A stretch of 64,000 nt of DNA from IMG/VR virus record IMGVR_UViG_3300045988_132725; one strand, given 5' to 3'. The notes below the pieces were generated by a model. That model had not been told where the DNA came from and made no database searches. It was given only the letters and a program-made list of their open reading frames with translations. Shown here piece after piece: positions 6,997-38,060 of this stretch. Both the position numbers and the translations under genes were made by a program. This DNA is from a virus. Each line of letters opens with the position of its first letter. Positions within the stretch are counted from its first letter, which is position 1.

Positions 6997-7043
6997 ATAT
7001 ATCTCTTGACTAGTCATGCTGTATTCCTAATCAAGAGATATAT
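6997..7043 (-). terminator. 13-bp-stem terminator closing the glycosyltransferase moron
   Basis: ATATATCTCTTGA (6997-7009) pairs with TCAAGAGATATAT (7031-7043), 5 nt after the stop at 7049. On the minus strand it is followed by a TTTAATCAAACTTTTTT tract. Confidence 0.7.
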
Positions 7044-7048
7044 GTAGG

Positions 7049-7504
7049 TTATTTTATTTCCTTAGATATACTTAAACGATATTGAAATTCATCTACCAAT
7101 CTTTTAATGGCTTGCTCCATAGGATCTTCTATATCTAAAATATCTTTCTCGTAAATGATTTTATCAGAGATATCAGATAACATCCAAGTTCCATATGGTG
7201 CTACACATGCTGAATGGGAGAAATAGCCCGTTAACATTGTGTTATCAATAAGAACAAATGGATGGAATAAAATGGTATTACATTCAAATAGCTTGAATCT
7301 GTTTTGATCTTCAGCTTTTAAAGAATTTTTTATTGACTTAAACGCTTTGATATTAGTTCGTAATTCTATAAGTAAATCTTCTTCACTATATTCCCCTTTA
7401 CGAAGAATACCCGCATAACCATTAAAATGATCATTATGAAACTTTACTAATTCTTCAGTAGGAAAAATTACATTAACTTCTGACTTGTCGTTCTTTTGAA
7501 TCAT
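7049..7504 (-). CDS. hypothetical 151-aa protein, second gene of AT-rich moron
   Basis: ORF overlaps the 3' end of the glycosyltransferase ORF by 32 nt in another frame. No motif recognised. Confidence 0.6.
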   Translation of the reverse strand: MIQKNDKSEVNVIFPTEELVKFHNDHFNGYAGILRKGEYSEEDLLIELRTNIKAFKSIKNSLKAEDQNRFKLFECNTILFHPFVLIDNTMLTGYFSHSACVAPYGTWMLSDISDKIIYEKDILDIEDPMEQAIKRLVDEFQYRLSISKEIK

Positions 7505-8900
7505 TCTCTTGCAAGTAATCTCCTGTTTTAGAATAATAAGGATAGATTATTGCGTCTAACCATATCCGTTTACAAGCTTTTTTCAATAAATGTGTTGAAC
7601 CATAGTTCTCATGCGGTGTAACTACTTTTATCATATATCTAGAATTTAAAGGTTTTACAATTTCTTTTTCTCCAATATCACAGAGGAAACTTATGCAGAT
7701 TTTTTTCCAGCTATATTTTTTTGTTAGCATTTTTTTTAGGGATGTAGCATATTCTTTCCATTTTGATTGTTGATTATTGATAGTTTTAATGGCTTCACTG
7801 ACATTTTCCAAGTCTTGTTGCGAAAATATTGTTTTTCCATCTCCTTTTATTTCTATTGGGTATACATATTTAGCGGCTTGGTTGGCAAAACTATCATCTA
7901 AAAATTCATATAAACCAGAATTTTTGGAAACAACCAAAGGAATACCAGCAGCAATAGCTTCCCAGCCAGCTAAACCAAAACCTTCATGGATAGAAAGCAT
8001 AAGTGCGACAGTACTTCGTTTTAGCAAAGTAAAAATTTCTTCTCGATCCTCCTTATATGGGACTATATTATACAACGATTGACCTTCTCCAAGATTAAAA
8101 ATGTTTAATTGACTTGAAATATGATTTTTAATATCTTGAATCTTTGATTTATCAAGATCTTTTTCTAATCCTACTAGTTCTACTTTAGAGTCGTGATAGA
8201 AAGCTCCTTCTCCACATTCTAGAATAGCTTTCTTTAAAGCGCAAACCGTTAGGCTAAATAATTTAATATAGTCTGTGTTATATTCTAGTCTGCCTGTACA
8301 TACCCCTATAAATTTATTAGGTAATTTTTGATTGCTTTTAATTTCAGGCAATCCCGGTATGAACATCTTACATTTGCTTTTCTGTTCATCATCTACAAGA
8401 TCCATTGCTGATTTATACAATTTAGGACCTACACCAAAAATAATATCGGCATTACTAAATATTATTTCTTGCCTTGATTTTTTATAAGATGATTTGTAAG
8501 GGTCAAAATTAATTTTAAACGGTTCATAGCTTTCATATGACATATGATGGAAAGCTATGAATTTACTGTTATACTCTGATTGAAACTTACATTCATAGGC
8601 AATTTTTCCTGAAATTACATCATGCCCAATAAAGTAGTTCTTAGCATCTTCTCCATTAATAGATTTTAGAATGAATGGAACAAAGGCATCACTAAACTCT
8701 TGTGACTTTAGGTTTATAATTTTAATACCTTTGCCTTCTGCGTCTTCTAATCCTGCTTTGTCTATATTTAATACTACACAATAAAGAGATAGATCTTCCA
8801 AATCCAATTTTGCTAGCGAACACAGTAAATCATAATTGAAAGAATTTATGCCTCCTTTTTGAGTACCCCATGAGTCTGTCAAAGAAATAATGTTAACCAT
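7473..8900 (-). CDS. GT-B fold glycosyltransferase (family-4-like) with about 70-aa C-terminal extension
   Basis: Contains the E-x7-E region HEGFGLAGWEAIAAGIPLVVSKNSGLYEFL and the N-terminal MVNIISLTDSWGTQKGGINSFNYDL. Track ORF starts at 8954, but a TATATTTG -7 box lies inside that extension, so the ATG at 8898-8900 is preferred. Confidence 0.75.
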   Translation of the reverse strand: MVNIISLTDSWGTQKGGINSFNYDLLCSLAKLDLEDLSLYCVVLNIDKAGLEDAEGKGIKIINLKSQEFSDAFVPFILKSINGEDAKNYFIGHDVISGKIAYECKFQSEYNSKFIAFHHMSYESYEPFKINFDPYKSSYKKSRQEIIFSNADIIFGVGPKLYKSAMDLVDDEQKSKCKMFIPGLPEIKSNQKLPNKFIGVCTGRLEYNTDYIKLFSLTVCALKKAILECGEGAFYHDSKVELVGLEKDLDKSKIQDIKNHISSQLNIFNLGEGQSLYNIVPYKEDREEIFTLLKRSTVALMLSIHEGFGLAGWEAIAAGIPLVVSKNSGLYEFLDDSFANQAAKYVYPIEIKGDGKTIFSQQDLENVSEAIKTINNQQSKWKEYATSLKKMLTKKYSWKKICISFLCDIGEKEIVKPLNSRYMIKVVTPHENYGSTHLLKKACKRIWLDAIIYPYYSKTGDYLQENDSKERQVRS

Positions 8901-8922
8901 GATACTTAGATTTAAGAATAAA

Positions 8923-8930
8923 CAAATATA
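8923..8930 (-). promoter_or_regulatory. Bacteroidota-type -7 promoter box (TATATTTG) for the moron
   Basis: Plus-strand CAAATATA equals minus-strand TAtaTTTG, 22 nt upstream of the ATG at 8900 and downstream of the tube-gene terminator. Confidence 0.5.
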
Positions 8931-9042
8931 GTGAATAGATGATAGATTATCCATGAATTTTCATTTATTCGACATGGTTATGTTTTATAACATGGAAATT
9001 TGTTTTGTTTATAGATTTGTAGTCTATCAGAGGGTTATAAAT

Positions 9043-31894: not shown

Positions 31895-32491
31895 ATGGCA
31901 AAGAAAGGTGTATTGACAACAGCGGATTATCTTCCATTTAAGGAGTATAAGGAAACAATGTCCAAACTTCATCGTGATGGCTATTATCGTGATGAGCTTT
32001 ATTTTATTCTAGCGTATACAACAGCTCTTCGTGTATCGGATTTACGCATGTTAAAATGGGAAGACGTGTTAAATAAGACATGTTTGGTCGTTACCGAGAA
32101 GAAAACTAAGAAGACCAGACCTATACCATTCAATGATGAGTTTAGAAAAATCGTGTCTGAGCTGTATGAATTATTAGGACATCCATACAAGGGTTGGTAC
32201 ATTTTTGAAGGGAACAAGCAACAACCTATGAGTATCCAACATATCAACCGTAGGCTGAAAGATATCAAGGAGAGATATGACTTATCCATTGAGAATTTCT
32301 CTACCCATACGTTTAGGAAAACATTTGGGCGTAATTACTATGAGACGAGAGGAAAAACAGAGGAGGCCCTTATCCAGCTGCAAAAGGTATTTAATCATTC
32401 CAATGTAGGTATCACTTATGTATATATCGGCATTAGAAATGACGAGATCAACGACTTTTACAAAAACATTAAATATAGAGACGATGATTGA
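31895..32491 (+). CDS. small tyrosine recombinase (catalytic domain only, 198 aa)
   Basis: ALRVSDLRMLKWEDV (Arg I), HTFRKTF (H-x-x-R), NHSNVGITYVYIG (His/Tyr). Confidence 0.7.
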   Translation: MAKKGVLTTADYLPFKEYKETMSKLHRDGYYRDELYFILAYTTALRVSDLRMLKWEDVLNKTCLVVTEKKTKKTRPIPFNDEFRKIVSELYELLGHPYKGWYIFEGNKQQPMSIQHINRRLKDIKERYDLSIENFSTHTFRKTFGRNYYETRGKTEEALIQLQKVFNHSNVGITYVYIGIRNDEINDFYKNIKYRDDD

Positions 32492-33086
32492 TTTAAAAAA
32501 GAACAAGGGAAACTACCTAACGTACGATGAATATAGAATTACGCTGGATAGGTTAAGGATGGATCGTATGTGCATTGAGGAGTTATTTTTCGTGCTGGCT
32601 TTCTACACGGGATTAAAACTGTCAGATCTACTTTCCCTCAAATGGAGTGATGTTTTGGACAAGGATGAATTCATATGGATCAAAACCAATCCGTGCAAGA
32701 GGACATTTGCGTTATCGTGGAAAGGACAGGATGTGCGTTCCCGATTGTCATATTTACATGAAGAACTTGGCTCTCCGGAAAAGGATCGATATGTATTTGA
32801 GACGAAAACAGGAAGACATTGTCATAACTCGTTTATTGATGAGTTACTGAAAAGGGTAAGAGATAAATATGATTTACCGGTAAAGCCTCTATACGCAAGC
32901 AGCTTTAGATTAACCTTTTGCCATCATATATATGAGACCGAAGAAAGAAAAGTAAAGGCTATCGCCTTCTTGGATTCATATGTTAGCGGTAAAACTGTTG
33001 ACATAGCCACTAATGGAAGACATATCCCTAGCGAGGAGATAGAAGATGCTTTAAAATCAATGAATATAAAATATAGAAATGACTAA
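32484..33086 (+). CDS. tyrosine-recombinase paralog with degenerate catalytic residues
   Basis: Same layout, but TGLKLSDL (Arg to Lys), SSFRLTF (His to Ser) and no clear H...Y tail. ATG 32484 overlaps the upstream stop (ATGATTGA). Track start 32418 is rejected. Confidence 0.55.
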   Translation: MIDLKKNKGNYLTYDEYRITLDRLRMDRMCIEELFFVLAFYTGLKLSDLLSLKWSDVLDKDEFIWIKTNPCKRTFALSWKGQDVRSRLSYLHEELGSPEKDRYVFETKTGRHCHNSFIDELLKRVRDKYDLPVKPLYASSFRLTFCHHIYETEERKVKAIAFLDSYVSGKTVDIATNGRHIPSEEIEDALKSMNIKYRND

Positions 33087-33376: not shown

Positions 33377-34204
33377 ATGGGAACGATGATTGACAAAATG
33401 GAAGATCCCGATTTCTCTCGGATCATTAAAGTTAGAGAGGAAAATGATAAGCAGTTGGTGTCTGCGAGAGAGTTGTATGAATTTATAGATGGCAAGGAAC
33501 GATTCACTAGATGGATCGGACGCATGTTTGAGTATGGTTTTGTGGAACATGTTGATTATGAGGCGGTGAACATTTTCGTACAGTGCCAAAACGGTATTGG
33601 TGGTACCAATAAGATGGATTATGCTCTGACAATTGATTGCGCCAAGCAAATAGCGATGCTTCAAAGAAACGCACAAGGACAACAAGTAAGAGCGTATTTT
33701 ATTAAATGTGAAGAGTTACTAAAGGAGAAGTTGAAGAAACAAGAGCTTGTTCTTCCGAAAGATTATCCTTCGGCGTTAAGAGCCTTGGCCGATGCTGAGG
33801 AAGAGAAAATGAAGGCGCTGGAGATAGCAAAGGAAAATGAGCTGAAGGTGAAGGAGCGTGACAAGTATATCAAGTCTAACCATCACAAGGTCGATTTCTA
33901 TGATGATTGCGTATATGAGGATGATGAGACCACTTACGACATGAATGGAGCGGCAAAGATCGTAATGGCCAAATATAACAAGGGAAGAAACACGATGATG
34001 GATATTCTCAGATTCTACGGGGTATTGATGCAGGACAATCTTCCTTACGAGAAATATATAAGATCCGGCTATTTTACCGTTAAGATCACGAAACCAAAAG
34101 ATAAGTTCGGGAACCCTAAGACTTGTAAGTCTACTATCGTGACAAGTAAAGGTGTTACGTTCCTGAAGAAGACGATAGACAAATACTATAGTGAGTTCTC
34201 GTAA
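33377..34204 (+). CDS. antirepressor (AntA/Rha-like N-terminus plus KilAC-like C-terminus)
   Basis: ARELYEFIDGKERFTRWIGRMFEYGFVEHVDYEAV is AntA-like. The C-terminus is lysine-rich and resembles the other paralogs. Confidence 0.5.
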   Translation: MGTMIDKMEDPDFSRIIKVREENDKQLVSARELYEFIDGKERFTRWIGRMFEYGFVEHVDYEAVNIFVQCQNGIGGTNKMDYALTIDCAKQIAMLQRNAQGQQVRAYFIKCEELLKEKLKKQELVLPKDYPSALRALADAEEEKMKALEIAKENELKVKERDKYIKSNHHKVDFYDDCVYEDDETTYDMNGAAKIVMAKYNKGRNTMMDILRFYGVLMQDNLPYEKYIRSGYFTVKITKPKDKFGNPKTCKSTIVTSKGVTFLKKTIDKYYSEFS

Positions 34205-34211
34205 AAAAATA

Positions 34212-34246
34212 AGCCCCATCTACTTGCTAGCGGATGGGGCTTTCTT
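34212..34246. terminator. bidirectional rho-independent terminator
   Basis: AGCCCCATC (34212-34220) pairs with GATGGGGCT (34233-34241), flanked by an A-run upstream and TTTCTT downstream. Sits between convergent genes. Confidence 0.75.
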
Positions 34247-34334
34247 GTGGATTTATGTGAAGTAAAGTCTAACTATTGCAAATGAGGCTTTTATATTAGT
34301 TCTTGAATGTATAAAAAGAAATGTTCTAGCAGAA

Positions 34335-35453
34335 TCAATCTTTTTCAGGCTTGATATGCTCTGATGGGTCAAGAGATCTTAACTTAAGTAAAAAACTAAA
34401 ATGTTCTTCTAATTCTTTACTTTTTTTTGTGTCTTCTATTTTAAATTTTTCGGTTGATTCTTTAAATTTCTTTATTGATTTTGTGATTTCTCTTCTAAAA
34501 CGAAGTAATGGAACAAATAAAGGGAAAAATAGTCCGCTAAAGATAGCAAAAGATATAGACGATATTAGAGCAAAAGTTTCATTGAAAATAAGTTCTTTGT
34601 CTAATAATACATTATATAAGATGGAAAGTATCGATATTGATAATAAAATCAGTGTAAAATGAATCAAATTGAAGTAATGAGTAAATATACTAGCTCCTTT
34701 CTTTTTAAATTTAAAAATAGCTCCTATAGCCAAGACAATAATGGCTAATACATAAACAATTGTCATAGACCATGATCCTAAAAAAGGTAATAATCCAATA
34801 ACAAAAGTAGATAATATTAAAGAAAAGAGTATTTTAATACAAGTCGTAAGTTTAAATTCATATAATATATCGCCATTGGAAGGATTTCTTTCCTTTATAG
34901 AAATCCAATAATAACTCCATATATATAACCAATATATAAAAGATGTAATAGAAACTAAACTTACTGTATCAATGCACCATTTTATAGCCCCCCAAAAACA
35001 ATCAAATATAAAAATAAATATACAAAATAAAAATGAATAAAAGAAAGAAGACAAAAATTCAGGTGCTTGGGTTATATTTTTGTATAAATTATCAACATTA
35101 TCCCTTAAAGTAAAATAACTTGTTTGATATTCAACAGTTAAGAACTGTAGCTCGTTTACCAAGCTAAGCATTTCTTGTTTACGTGGATTATTTTCTTCTT
35201 TTGATTTAGCAATAGCACTATAGAGAACTTTATAATTACGCTTTTTTAAAACATCTACAAAATTATCCCCTTCTCTGCTTAAAAACGCTTTAGTCCGTTT
35301 GCAAATAATTAACAATAAATTTTGTATAAAATTATTGCTGTTTTTCTCGATGTTGTCAGATCCAAAAAAACATAAAACAGCTAAAGTCATTATTGAACCT
35401 AAAAAAGTTGCACTATTTCCACTAAGAAAAGTGCATAATAGTACTAGAAGCAT
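34335..35453 (-). CDS. polytopic membrane protein (about 7-8 TM, about 110-aa cytoplasmic loop, charged C-tail)
   Basis: Hydrophobic runs FLSSFFYSFLFCIFIFIF, ITSFIYWLYIWSYYWISI, ILFSLILSTFVIGLLPFLG, IVYVLAIIVLAIGAIF, FTLILLSISILSILY and ISSISFAIFSGLFFPLFVPLL. Very AT-rich. Confidence 0.65.
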   Translation of the reverse strand: MLLVLLCTFLSGNSATFLGSIMTLAVLCFFGSDNIEKNSNNFIQNLLLIICKRTKAFLSREGDNFVDVLKKRNYKVLYSAIAKSKEENNPRKQEMLSLVNELQFLTVEYQTSYFTLRDNVDNLYKNITQAPEFLSSFFYSFLFCIFIFIFDCFWGAIKWCIDTVSLVSITSFIYWLYIWSYYWISIKERNPSNGDILYEFKLTTCIKILFSLILSTFVIGLLPFLGSWSMTIVYVLAIIVLAIGAIFKFKKKGASIFTHYFNLIHFTLILLSISILSILYNVLLDKELIFNETFALISSISFAIFSGLFFPLFVPLLRFRREITKSIKKFKESTEKFKIEDTKKSKELEEHFSFLLKLRSLDPSEHIKPEKD

Positions 35454-35456
35454 GTC

Positions 35457-36017
35457 TCAATTAATGATTTTGTGTGATGAAAGTAAAAGGCTTTGAAACT
35501 GTTTCTTTAATGCTTCAGTGTTTTTAGTGTCATTAAAATTTGCGAAAGCAGAATGTTCTTCTGCTCCTAATTCTCTTCTATATTTATTGTCATCACCGAT
35601 TGAAAAATGAAATTCAGGTTTTAGTTCGCTGTCTAGTTTATAAACTAGAACCTGCCCTTCAGCTATTTTATCCTTTATTAAAGGACTAATATTTGTTGCT
35701 AAGTCTTCTATAAAGCTATGTTCTTTTTTTTCTAAAATAATGGAAAGTTTTCCTCCTCTATTTAAAAAATGAGTAATTTGGTCGTATAGTGGCTGCATAG
35801 GGTTATAATCCCCTTCTGTAACTTCTTTATCTACTTTTTCAGCAAAACTAGTTCTGAAGAGAGAACCTTCACCGCAAAGCATATCGATTTCATTGGAGTG
35901 CCTAAAAATCTCTTTCATTATTATAGCATTATGTGATCTGTCAGCATTCCACATTAATTCATTTCTTTTGCTGTTTGCAATAGTCTCTATCTCGACATTA
36001 TACTCTACTAGACTCAT
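35457..36017 (-). CDS. hypothetical soluble 186-aa protein, first gene of the cassette
   Basis: 3-nt gap to the membrane gene. FHFSIGDDNKYRRE...ANFND is only reminiscent of a PLD HxKxxxxD...GSxN layout (Ser replaces Lys). Not a confident family call. Confidence 0.6.
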   Translation of the reverse strand: MSLVEYNVEIETIANSKRNELMWNADRSHNAIIMKEIFRHSNEIDMLCGEGSLFRTSFAEKVDKEVTEGDYNPMQPLYDQITHFLNRGGKLSIILEKKEHSFIEDLATNISPLIKDKIAEGQVLVYKLDSELKPEFHFSIGDDNKYRRELGAEEHSAFANFNDTKNTEALKKQFQSLLLSSHKIIN

Positions 36018-36037
36018 TTTCTCTAAGTTTGGACGTG

Positions 36038-36045
36038 CAAATTTA
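36038..36045 (-). promoter_or_regulatory. -7 promoter box TAAATTTG for the 186-aa/membrane cassette
   Basis: Plus-strand CAAATTTA, 21 nt upstream of the ATG at 36017. Confidence 0.45.
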
Positions 36046-36220
36046 AATAAATAATTTGATATTGCAATCTCTACATTGCATTAAAATCAAAATACATTGG
36101 GAGTTATCTTGGTTTTTTTATGTTCTTGGGCATAATTTGTTTTTGTTAAGAATATGGCTTCGCCTTTACCCCTCCGATAACATCCCTCAGCAACGTAGTT
36201 GAAGCTTAACTATAACTACT

Positions 36221-36266
36221 ACCTTATATGACATATACAGTATATACTACTGTTACTATATAAGGT
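36221..36266. repeat. nested inverted repeat
   Basis: ACCTTATAT (36221-36229) pairs with ATATAAGGT (36258-36266), enclosing ACAGTA-tatac-TACTGT. Confidence 0.6.
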
Positions 36267-36392
36267 AATACCTATTTACAGGATATTACAAGATTGGTTC
36301 GATATGGGTTGATACAAGCTTCTTACCTAAAACTACGGCGATAAGAGGACTTGGTTGACTAATCTAGATATCAATCACCATATCCGAGCATT

Positions 36393-37094
36393 CTACGACA
36401 CTTCCGCCCCTCCACCTATGTAAGCAACTTCGTTCATAAAAGGATAACCGTTCTGTTGGCCAAGTAGTAGGGAACTCTTGTATGCTACTCGTTTTAAACA
36501 GATCGGCGGCGCTTGGTCTCCTTTCCTCCATGGATAAACCAGAATAGGAACAGCGAGATTGCAAACGTCAGAGCCTTGGTTGACCTGTTTCCAATTACTA
36601 GGATACGTCCAGTTACGGATGCGAATCATAGGATTTTTATTTGTCTTCGGTCACTCGTTTACCGGCTCTCGGTTGATGTTATCGGAGTTCGGGTTGTCAG
36701 GCGTAAGACATAGCCCTAGATTATACCACCGATAAACGAGCGTTCGTAAATACTCGATCTTTTTGTTAGATTTTTGTCAATCTGGGAGAAGAGAGGCACG
36801 ACATTGCAGCCTTGTCTTAAAAACTCCCGTAAGGTTTGTTTTATATTCTCCAGCATCCCTCAACGCAGGAGAAGTAGAACGGTTATTTATTCCCGGATAC
36901 TAATTTTTCTGACTCGAATCTACATCAAGTTTCTGTCTGCCAATAGCTGTATCAAAGCTGGGATAAGGAACAAGATCCTCTAACTCATCCCGGAAAGCAT
37001 TAATAAATGCCGATTGAGGATATTTCCGCTATTGTATCGTCACCAAGGTATAACTATCGACCAACCGGTTAGGATTGACCCACATGATAGACAT
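36393..37094 (-). pseudogene. about 233-codon gene interrupted only by four nonsense codons (no frameshift)
   Basis: One minus-strand frame is open from ATG 37092-37094 to TAG 36393-36395, apart from TAG 37029-37031, TAG 36900-36902, TGA 36777-36779 and TGA 36651-36653. A neighbouring frame has about 19 stops over the same span. GC is visibly higher than the flanks. Confidence 0.6.
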
Positions 37095-37125
37095 GGAGCA
37101 ATGGGATAGGGTACAAAGCGTCCAG

Positions 37126-37148
37126 ACCTTCGGATTTGAAGGTTTTAT
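37126..37148 (+). terminator. plus-strand terminator-like hairpin in a region with only minus-strand genes
   Basis: ACCTTC-ggattt-GAAGGT followed by TTTTAT. Confidence 0.3.
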
Positions 37149-37195
37149 ATAAGAATAGGCTGATTTGATCAAAAAGGGTTTGTGGTTGTTTGATA

Positions 37196-37765
37196 TTAAT
37201 TCGTTACGGAAACAATAATACCTACTGCTTCCATATCACTTATAGTTTGCCTAGCTTCATCTAGCGTACTTCCATGATATAAGTGATCTGCAATGATATT
37301 TAATTTAAAAGATATGCCTCTATGTCCATTACTTATAAAGTCAATAAGAGCTTGACCACAAGCAGGACATGGGCTTTTAGATACTCTCATAATTAACGAT
37401 AAAGTTCCGCTGGCATCAGTACCTTCATCGTCAATGGAATGATCTATAAATGATTGAATGCCAGCTATTGCCTCCGTTTCTGCATGGACTCCATCTTCAC
37501 TTATGCCTGTGCCTATTACAACTTCATTGCCATCATCTTCATTTATAAAGGAAACCTGAGCATAAGTAGTATATCCTGTACTTGATGATTCTTCTGTTGT
37601 GATGAGTCTATTGTAAATAAAATCGCCTTGAATACAATCTCCATTGATCCCGGAAATTAAATTATACTGTCGTGTGGCAGACTCCCTATTATCCATTTGG
37701 TATTTGGGATGATTTGTATTGTTTGGAGAAAGTCTGCTTATTGCATTTTCTTGGTATGAATACAT
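37196..37765 (-). CDS. free-standing zinc deaminase (cytidine/nucleic-acid deaminase fold)
   Basis: H-A-E (GVHAETEAIAG) and P-C-x-x-C (SKSPCPACGQ) motifs about 35 residues apart. 189 aa with no other domain. Confidence 0.7.
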   Translation of the reverse strand: MYSYQENAISRLSPNNTNHPKYQMDNRESATRQYNLISGINGDCIQGDFIYNRLITTEESSSTGYTTYAQVSFINEDDGNEVVIGTGISEDGVHAETEAIAGIQSFIDHSIDDEGTDASGTLSLIMRVSKSPCPACGQALIDFISNGHRGISFKLNIIADHLYHGSTLDEARQTISDMEAVGIIVSVTN

Positions 37766-37781
37766 TTGGTTCGTTTTAAAT

Positions 37782-38060
37782 TTATGGATTATTCTTCTCT
37801 CCTCGCCCCTCTTCTCTTCTCACCAGTTTCCCGTCACTTCCAGCCAAGAACTTCTCGCTGATGCCTTGCTTCTCTGATTTAATGGGAATGGTAACTATGT
37901 TGGTTTGTCTTCTGGCGAATATCGGAGCTACTTGGTAAAGAATCTCTATCGCCTCATCCATTGACAGGTAATAATTACCAGCGTATAGACCGAAGAAGTG
38001 ACCTTGATCTCCTCTTGATATCTTGTGGTAATAGTTCCTCTGTAAGGCAATATTTCCCAT
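37782..38060 (-). CDS. hypothetical 92-aa protein, first gene of deaminase operon
   Basis: 16-nt gap to the deaminase ORF. Basic/acidic C-tail. Confidence 0.55.
   Translation of the reverse strand: MGNIALQRNYYHKISRGDQGHFFGLYAGNYYLSMDEAIEILYQVAPIFARRQTNIVTIPIKSEKQGISEKFLAGSDGKLVRREEGRGEKNNP

Follow-up and report, generated by a model that had tools for sequence, protein, structure and literature searches.

Several prophages carry RexAB-type systems, among them lambda RexA/RexB, RexABpp of P. putida, and the pairs of the mycobacteriophages Sbash, CarolAnn and Butters (PMC12894663). In lambda and P. putida, the membrane partner serves as the effector and is triggered by the cytosolic partner, whereas in phage Butters these roles are reversed, such that a cytosolic effector is held by its membrane partner (PMC12894663). 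A prophage moron built from one soluble and one membrane protein is, in other words, an already known design. The present analysis concerns a two-gene cassette of this general layout, here termed A–B, located in a 64,000-nucleotide (nt) stretch of viral DNA (IMG/VR record IMGVR_UViG_3300045988_132725), the whole of which is referred to as the window. Gene A (35457–36017, minus strand) is an open reading frame (ORF) for a predicted cytoplasmic protein of 186 amino acids (aa), with a phospholipase D (PLD)-superfamily fold and a conserved site that is not of the HKD type. Gene B (34335–35453, minus strand) is an ORF for a polytopic membrane protein of 372 aa. The pair is strictly co-occurring, co-diverging and mobile, and is carried as cargo by temperate phages, integrative and conjugative elements (ICEs) and defence islands of Bacteroidales. 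Both proteins fall outside described families, and the pair has no counterpart among catalogued defence systems. With a probability of roughly 45%, A–B is read here as a mobile, self-promoted two-gene conflict module that would most likely protect its carrier cell or lysogen from other phages.

Pairing, co-divergence and genomic contexts

The pairing survey covered the window together with 45 A-centred loci, representing about 20 distinct contexts and A proteins down to 25% identity. A polytopic membrane protein directly follows A in every recovered locus with enough downstream DNA. Judged with a broader B profile, the gene after A is a B homolog in all but two of these loci (L039 and L042), which carry a different protein with 3–4 transmembrane (TM) helices at that position. 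The intergenic gaps lie mostly between −38 and +22 nt. The two genes are always adjacent in prophages of Parabacteroides distasonis, and they are likewise adjacent in Phocaeicola vulgatus, whose A is 49% identical, and in a further lineage in which A is 72% identical. A genome scan added six Bacteroidales loci with A at 25–34% identity (Parabacteroides, Rikenellaceae, Dysgonamonadaceae, Tannerellaceae, Muribaculaceae and an unclassified metagenome-assembled genome), and a B homolog comes right after A in each of them (E 3e-18 to 9e-6); this number is a lower bound biased toward Bacteroidales, the scan having been seeded with a narrower A alignment. Scans of metagenomes and viral sequences contributed 23 more A loci. 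The sequence-only reading that singled out this cassette had allowed that the pair might never be found together outside this genome; it is in fact co-inherited across Bacteroidales lineages. The two proteins also diverge together: across 19 pairs, the identity matrices of A and B correlate with r = 0.90 (Mantel p ≤ 2e-4), and the distant pairs alone give r = 0.64. B is the faster evolving partner, with a mean identity of 22% versus 30% for A. A second pair of nearly the same dimensions (186 aa + 374 aa), encountered in L011 and L013, was dropped as unrelated (16% identity; membrane protein).

The genes flanking A–B differ in almost every lineage. The pair is found at the end of the P. vulgatus type VI secretion system (T6SS)/ICE region, between DUF6016 and SPOR genes, between the pyruvate kinase gene (pyk) and pta-ackA, between an OTCase-like gene and RarA, by suf genes, by tyrosine integrases, by prophage lysis or recombination modules (L033, L028 and L040), and at the edges of polysaccharide loci (L030 and L034). 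Because the flanks change from lineage to lineage, A–B is not a housekeeping operon, and the conserved chromosomal setting that would have marked its members as ordinary transporters or lipid enzymes is not what the loci display.

The survey of homologous neighbourhoods that the sequence-only reading had called for found the pair in prophage cargo slots and, at several loci, close to known or candidate defence genes. The genes concerned lie within about 1 kb of the pair, or up to 2.2 kb in the case of PD-Lambda-5_A in L017. They comprise HEC-02A/B in L009–L013 (7e-90 and 2e-25), PDC-S27 (2e-50) together with PD-Lambda-5_A (2e-190) in L017, a type IIG restriction-modification enzyme in L039 (5e-200), PDC-M26A/B in L003 (PDC-M26A at 2e-45), an HD-CE/PRTase protein with a Schlafen-AlbA_2 protein in L041, and a weak PD-T4-9_A match in L030. 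Strong PADLOC matches are thus present in 5 of about 17 contexts and weaker indications in two others, a count that comes without a background rate, and this location is suggestive of a defence role.

The P. vulgatus loci L009–L013 share the order TssF gene, 310-aa gene, A–B, HEC-02A/B ATPase pair and tyrosine recombinase, an arrangement suggestive of a small defence islet bordering a T6SS-bearing element.

An exchangeable cargo unit with its own expression signals

The window is a myovirus-like phage or prophage, and A–B is located in its accessory region. The minus strand of the first 23 kb carries tape-measure, tail-sheath, head-protease and portal genes. From 23.5 kb onward, the plus strand carries DUF4494, an M15 peptidase, a dUTPase, three ANT/KilA antirepressors, a C5 methylase, a Bro-N protein, an NAD-dependent ligase and two short integrase-fold genes, and the A–B cassette runs antisense to these plus-strand phage genes. 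A 68.9-kb IMG/VR contig encodes an identical protein A and shares 98.8% DNA identity over 4.2 kb around the cassette. A version of the cassette with 89% identity lies within P. distasonis contigs of 0.2–5 Mb (NCBI and ENA assemblies), and the element is therefore a temperate phage. Among deposited phage genomes and plasmids, the cassette DNA and protein A found no match, nor did the flanking phage DNA among deposited phages.

Comparison with sister prophages by blastn outlines the cassette as an exchangeable cargo unit of promoter, A, B and terminator, with approximate limits at 34171–36150. Window positions 37182–34171 form a single conserved block in these comparisons, and 34171 is the edge of an insertion of the AntA antirepressor gene. 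The autonomy claimed for the cassette on first reading is borne out by one sister phage, L046 (IMGVR_UViG_3300008497_000225). There, window positions 33397–36150 are exchanged for an unrelated, AT-rich, minus-strand cassette of three genes (L046 10981–13409; G+C content (GC) 0.286), which encode proteins of 410, 105 and 165 aa and carry their own TAnnTTTG box 49 nt upstream of the first gene. The 165-aa protein, the last of the three, has a hydrophobic segment, and none of the three has a sequence match in the PDB; the replacement may be another unrecognised cargo system. A second variable slot lies upstream of A–B, at about 37182–37845. It is occupied by an APOBEC-like deaminase in the window, by the McrBC-like PDC-M26A/B pair in L003, and by genes for proteins of 538 aa in L001 and 540 aa in L046. 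Both slots taken together resemble a hotspot where the phage carries accessory or defence genes.

The cassette itself has the anatomy first described for it: two AT-rich ORFs (GC of 0.32 in gene A and 0.26 in gene B, against 0.375 for the whole window) joined as AAT TGA gac ATG, with a gap of 3 nt. A candidate Bacteroidetes-type −7 promoter box, TAAATTTG, was found by direct reading and by pattern scan at 36038–36045 (minus strand), with 21 nt between it and the downstream ATG of gene A. The number of TAnnTTTG motifs in the window is at chance (80 matches versus 69 ± 8 expected), and it is not this count but the recurrence of the box across divergent loci that supports a promoter carried along by the module from site to site: among 22 loci that are divergent in sequence from one another, 13 have such a box 26–59 nt upstream of A. 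With the motif frequency of the whole window, chance alone would yield about one such locus, or somewhat more given the AT-rich upstream regions.

At the other end, about 90 nt past the stop codon of gene B, RNA folding and sequence identify an intrinsic-terminator-like hairpin, AAGCCCCAUC...GAUGGGGCUU followed by U7 (34203–34242, minus strand). The hairpin proper occupies 34211–34242, with a GC-rich stem of 10 + 3 bp, and the U7 run lies at 34203–34209. A consensus terminator scan did not report this hairpin, probably because the inner 3-bp stem was counted into a 12-nt loop, above the limit of 3–8 nt. The convergent AntA/KilAC antirepressor gene (33377–34204) ends right at the hairpin, its stop codon overlapping the U-run, which makes use of the terminator in both directions, by B and by AntA, plausible. 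The plus-strand tail of the hairpin, however, is no more than moderately U-rich.

Several features around the cassette are recorded as observations in their own right. The AntA/KilAC gene directly downstream is an insertion relative to most sister prophages, absent from L001–L008 and present in L024 and L044, and there are at least four ANT/KilA/Bro-type genes within 10 kb in the window phage. The deaminase ORF of the second slot (37196–37765, minus strand, 189 aa) matches the Pfam models APOBEC3 and SNAD4 at about 1e-6. Together with an upstream 92-aa ORF (37782–38060) it corresponds to one gene of 311 or 295 aa in sister prophages, with residues 117–311 of the L002 protein 89% identical to the 189-aa ORF; the deaminase gene of the window is therefore split, as a pseudogene or a two-ORF variant. 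The roughly 1 kb between the slots (36150–37182) contains no ORF of 80 aa or more, has a higher GC of 0.40–0.41, and is 94–99% conserved in all sister prophages, including L046, which is without A–B. Rfam returns nothing for it at E ≤ 1, and it folds better than its shuffled versions (z = −3.2 on the minus strand and −2.2 on the plus strand; 20 shuffles). Candidate explanations are a non-coding RNA, a decayed gene, and a regulatory or origin region.

Farther away, a second AT-rich island (7000–9000, GC 0.30) within the structural module contains an ORF for a 493-aa protein (7473–8954, minus strand). This protein has a glycosyltransferase-like C-terminus and a match in the PHROG category “moron” (2.5e-13), and is possibly a surface-modifying moron. 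Positions 31895–33086 hold two short, overlapping integrase-fold ORFs of 198 and 222 aa (Phage_integrase, 9e-26 and 2e-9), which are without the usual N-terminal domains; in some relatives, the first is shortened to 87 aa and a block of primase, polymerase III alpha and PIF1 helicase genes stands where the window has its upstream ligase/methylase block.

Folds and conserved features of the two proteins

Protein A has no significant match in Pfam, NCBIfam, PHROGs or PADLOC, the family-library matches of A and B being at noise level (NYN 0.16, NDK 0.04). It has no hydrophobic segment by hydropathy and is soluble, as had been read from its sequence. A word-indexed search recovered just 12 clusters, from P. 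distasonis and P. vulgatus, whereas an exhaustive profile search recovered 797 representatives at E ≤ 1e-3, 143 of them at E ≤ 1e-10. These relatives are mostly rare metagenomic sequences, and nearly all are stand-alone proteins of 170–220 aa. The longer ones (P0071, P0158 and others) were considered as possible domain fusions and set aside, their N-terminal extensions being of low complexity or the product of spurious starts. In a set of 93 diverse relatives, PADLOC gives no consistent match, and the only Pfam model touched is DUF7931, by two members. Searches of PDB sequences with single profiles and with a broad A profile produced nothing credible (NRC2a 0.014, OAS2 0.88).

AlphaFold models A with a predicted local distance difference test score (pLDDT) of 91.8 and a predicted template-modelling score (pTM) of 0.89. 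Foldseek of this model against the PDB returns 55 matches at E ≤ 1e-3, and all of those listed are PLD-fold proteins, led by TrmBL2 (E = 6e-8), vaccinia F13 (E = 1e-6) and FAM83 DUF1669 (E = 1e-6). The match to Nuc (1BYR) has E = 3.7e-6 and a TM-score of 0.68 normalised to Nuc, and further matches include Zucchini, NucT, PLD1–4, SauUSI, PssA and PPK1. The model therefore assigns A confidently to the phospholipase D fold, and the tentative resemblance to a PLD/Nuc layout with its Lys missing, which the sequence-only reading had put forward, was right as to fold. At the level of sequence, the Pfam PLDc models match neither A nor its 93 relatives, and profile–profile comparison (hhalign) with Nuc and Zucchini is insignificant, with a probability of 0.4%.

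The catalytic motifs of the PLD superfamily are broken in A, and a different set of residues is conserved instead; the counts that follow are taken over the 93 diverse members. The HxK(x)4D motif is not intact: H137 is present in 93/93, position 135 is hydrophobic, and position 139 is Ser, Thr, Ala or Cys and never Lys. GSxN is replaced by G151-A-E-E in the window protein and by D-K-x-x in the family consensus. N24, H137, R147 and E149 are each found in 93/93, with R147 and E149 on the strand where GSxN would be expected. Conservation is nearly as strong at H29 (90/93), G49 (88/93), C48 (87/93) and S52 (82/93). Judged by its spacing to the conserved D142, the invariant His137 may occupy the register of the HKD Lys rather than that of the His, the placement also given by a forced profile alignment to Nuc and Zucchini, at the 0.4% probability noted above. 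A polar constellation conserved this strictly on a PLD scaffold points to a specific pocket in A, for ligand binding or for catalysis, and its ligand would probably bear a phosphate.

Protein B is likewise without a family match in Pfam, NCBIfam, PHROGs and PADLOC; its homologs are few, and none carries a Pfam annotation. Hydropathy and the AlphaFold model give it seven TM helices, a cytoplasmic loop and a charged tail, close to the 7–8 helices and the loop and tail of the original description. The model is of moderate quality (pLDDT 74.7, pTM 0.67), with helices at 12–30, 42–71, 74–83, 92–128, 131–154, 158–188, 202–220, 227–252, 259–283 and 292–361. From the charges of its loops, B is inferred to have its N-terminus outside, TM1 at 12–30, and six further TM helices between 131 and 313. 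A helical domain of about 100 aa (approximately 31–130, with 15 Lys/Arg), the loop KFKKKG (247–252), and the C-terminal region 314–372 (16 Lys/Arg and 12 Asp/Glu, with a long helix to about 361) are predicted to be cytoplasmic. Foldseek of B against the PDB and BFVD finds no structural match (best E = 0.2, TM-score < 0.25), and its hits were rejected as coiled-coil and rhodopsin noise. CPBP/Abi-like (FxxxH, HxxxN) and rhomboid-like readings of B were likewise rejected, since neither Pfam nor Foldseek supports them.

A broad alignment takes in B homologs with as little as 15% identity, and conservation in it is highest over TM1 and its exit, LGNxQTFxGxLxTLxVLC...SNF. Conserved positions are T23, L27, C28 and N41, followed by E132 and D151 in TM2, S171 in TM3, H265 in TM6 and P311 in TM7. 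Charged and polar residues within the TM helices are thus retained across identities of 15–20%, and because conserved charges lie inside the membrane, B is suggested to do more than anchor A. Gene B is disrupted in a few loci. In L007, an isolate of P. distasonis (GCA_000699805.1), it is frameshifted by one additional T in a T7 run (column ~716), with A intact; the extra base may be a sequencing error, or a sign of decay or of slip-strand switching that turns B on and off. Two further truncations come from metagenome contigs: L023, which looks chimeric from its downstream genes, and L036, an apparent truncation.

Proposed role, rival explanations and known systems

How might such a pair protect its carrier? 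As proposed here, B would reside in the inner membrane, where its long C-terminal helix would probably hold it together as an oligomer, and would expose this helix and the domain of about 100 aa to the cytoplasm. The N24/H137/R147/E149 pocket of A would bind, and perhaps cleave, a phosphate-bearing ligand, for which phage nucleic acid, a nucleotide and a lipid head group are candidates. A would dock onto the cytoplasmic parts of B, and infection would alter the state of the A–B assembly. B might then disturb the membrane by way of its conserved intramembrane Asp151, His265 and Glu132, such that the infection is stopped, as with lambda RexA/RexB. The reverse polarity is nearly as likely: A would then be the enzymatic effector, and B would either sense the envelope or sequester A. 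Many defence nucleases have the PLD fold, which would point to A as the effector; the closest structural matches of A are non-catalytic PLD folds that bind ligands or partners, and its own HKD motif is broken, both of which would rather make A the sensor; and the Asp, His and Glu retained within the membrane part of B would suit an ion path. There is a slight preference for the Rex-like polarity, with A as trigger and B as effector.

A number of points weigh against protection of the carrier as the function of A–B. Neither protein matches a PADLOC, PHROG, Pfam or NCBIfam model, and the tally of defence neighbours spans about 17 contexts without a background control. Several contexts have plain housekeeping flanks (L014, L018, L019, L020 and L022), and L030 and L034 adjoin capsule/polysaccharide genes, which would suit an envelope-modifying role. 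That B is toxic or costly, finally, is only weakly indicated, the evidence from disruptions being thin.

The envelope-modifying role just mentioned is the likeliest of the alternatives but is still considered unlikely. Phage morons often modify surfaces, and by lysogenic conversion A could act as a diverged PLD-type phosphotransferase or hydrolase on phospholipid or a lipid-linked glycan, with B presenting or transporting the substrate and the cell surface, for example a phage receptor, being changed as a result. The structural matches of A do include cardiolipin/phosphatidylserine synthases, PLD3/4 and the membrane-associated F13; B keeps the intramembrane residues D151, H265, E132 and S171, which might befit an enzyme or transporter; L030 and L034 border polysaccharide-biosynthesis genes; and the same phage carries the AT-rich, glycosyltransferase-like gene at 7473–8954. 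Lipid-acting PLD enzymes, however, have two intact HKD motifs per active site, whereas the HKD Lys and GSxN are missing from all 93 A members and no Pfam PLDc model matches A. Moreover, by Foldseek B resembles no transporter, flippase, glycosyltransferase or acyltransferase in the PDB, and most contexts are without envelope genes nearby. A toxin–antitoxin or addiction module without a dedicated anti-phage role, which would persist since its loss is costly, is quite improbable. It would cast B as a membrane-damaging toxin and the upstream, translationally coupled A as its antidote, and it would account for the tight unit, in which gaps measure −38 to +22 nt and a small soluble gene takes the lead, for the patchy, mobile distribution with insertions between housekeeping genes, for the loci in which B is disrupted and A intact, and for the co-divergence of the two. 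But both proteins are much larger than those of typical type II pairs, and a simple antidote would not need the invariant, enzyme-like or ligand-binding pocket of A. This explanation also overlaps with carrier protection, as many toxin–antitoxin modules are themselves anti-phage.

The location of the cassette inside a phage genome raises the possibility that it benefits the phage itself, in lysis timing or membrane remodelling during the lytic cycle, a role that the long amphipathic tail of the polytopic B and the position of the pair behind the lysis cassette of L033 might fit. Yet the cassette is antisense to all neighbouring phage genes, with its own promoter and terminator; it is dispensable, being replaced in the sister phage L046; and it also occurs outside phages, between housekeeping genes. 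Such a role is therefore given very little weight. The least probable of the explanations makes the pair an effector and its immunity protein: the Bacteroidales T6SS would deliver A, a PLD-like toxin, against which B would be the membrane immunity protein. PLD-family T6SS effectors exist (Tle5), an order of effector before immunity gene would fit, and the P. vulgatus pair directly follows the TssF gene and 310-aa gene of a T6SS cluster. Nevertheless, T6SS genes appear in one of about 17 contexts, and even there the pair stands at the edge of the cluster, by HEC-02 genes and an integrase, while most copies are in prophages or at isolated chromosomal sites. At 186 aa, moreover, A has a single, non-HKD PLD-like domain rather than a dual HKD, and scans of the family libraries found no PAAR, VgrG, Hcp or adaptor domain in it.

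Beyond the reading of A–B as a protective conflict module lies a more specific version, which is a long shot. According to it, A would be a new functional branch of the PLD fold, in which an Asn-His-Arg-Glu site, plus His, Cys and Ser, replaces HKD chemistry. That site would bind or cleave a phospho-ligand derived from infection and gate B, itself the founder of a new family of 7-TM channels or effectors. If so, the sensor–effector pairing would be new to bacterial immunity; the pair has so far been seen in Bacteroidales alone, and gut phages would exchange it as cargo. Bacteroidales dominate the human gut, while most catalogued anti-phage systems come from Proteobacteria and Firmicutes, and to our knowledge the anti-phage repertoire of Bacteroidales is poorly charted. 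Were A–B to act in defence or exclusion, it would do so without homology to any catalogued system. An unannotated PLD-fold family, which comprises about 800 sequence clusters and has a new invariant site, would gain a role, and an orphan family of 7-TM proteins would be introduced. The paired cargo slots could be mined for more systems, and phage resistance at the strain level in Parabacteroides might be explained in part by such slots.

Set against described proteins, A has a mixed kinship. With the PLD nucleases (Nuc 1BYR, NucT, Zucchini/mitoPLD and the N-domain of SauUSI) it shares the alpha/beta fold, a single-domain size of about 150–190 aa, and an invariant His at the start of the “HKD” strand, but it differs from them in having neither an intact HxK(x)4D...GSxN nor a sequence-profile match. 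Its best structural matches are non-catalytic PLD folds, namely the C-terminal domain of TrmB/TrmBL2, FAM83 DUF1669 and vaccinia F13. Like A, these have no complete HKD, and they bind ligands, partners or membranes. Unlike them, A has its own invariant polar set (N24, H137, R147 and E149, plus H29, C48 and S52) and is a stand-alone protein always paired with a membrane protein.

As a two-component design, A–B shares its membrane-plus-soluble logic with Kiwa (KwaA/KwaB) and Zorya (ZorAB with soluble effectors), defence-island systems that couple a membrane protein to a cytoplasmic partner directed at nucleic acids. Folds and sizes differ, however, and no hidden Markov model of PADLOC-DB v2, a collection of catalogued anti-phage systems that includes both Kiwa and Zorya, matches A or B. 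Literature searches on DUF7931, on PLD-like plus transmembrane defence pairs, and on prophage defence in P. distasonis likewise turned up no account of the A–B pair. The RexAB type shows no homology either: A has a PLD fold and not that of RexA, there is no PHROG, Pfam or PADLOC link, and B, with 7 TM helices, 372 aa and a large cytoplasmic domain, contrasts with RexB, which has about 144 aa and 4 TM helices. RexAB systems exclude other phages via membrane damage, and A–B may do so too. What the two have in common is their architecture, adjacent prophage-borne genes for a cytoplasmic and a polytopic membrane protein that are kept separate from the lytic operons, and by this analogy the RexAB type would be the nearest functional analogue of A–B.

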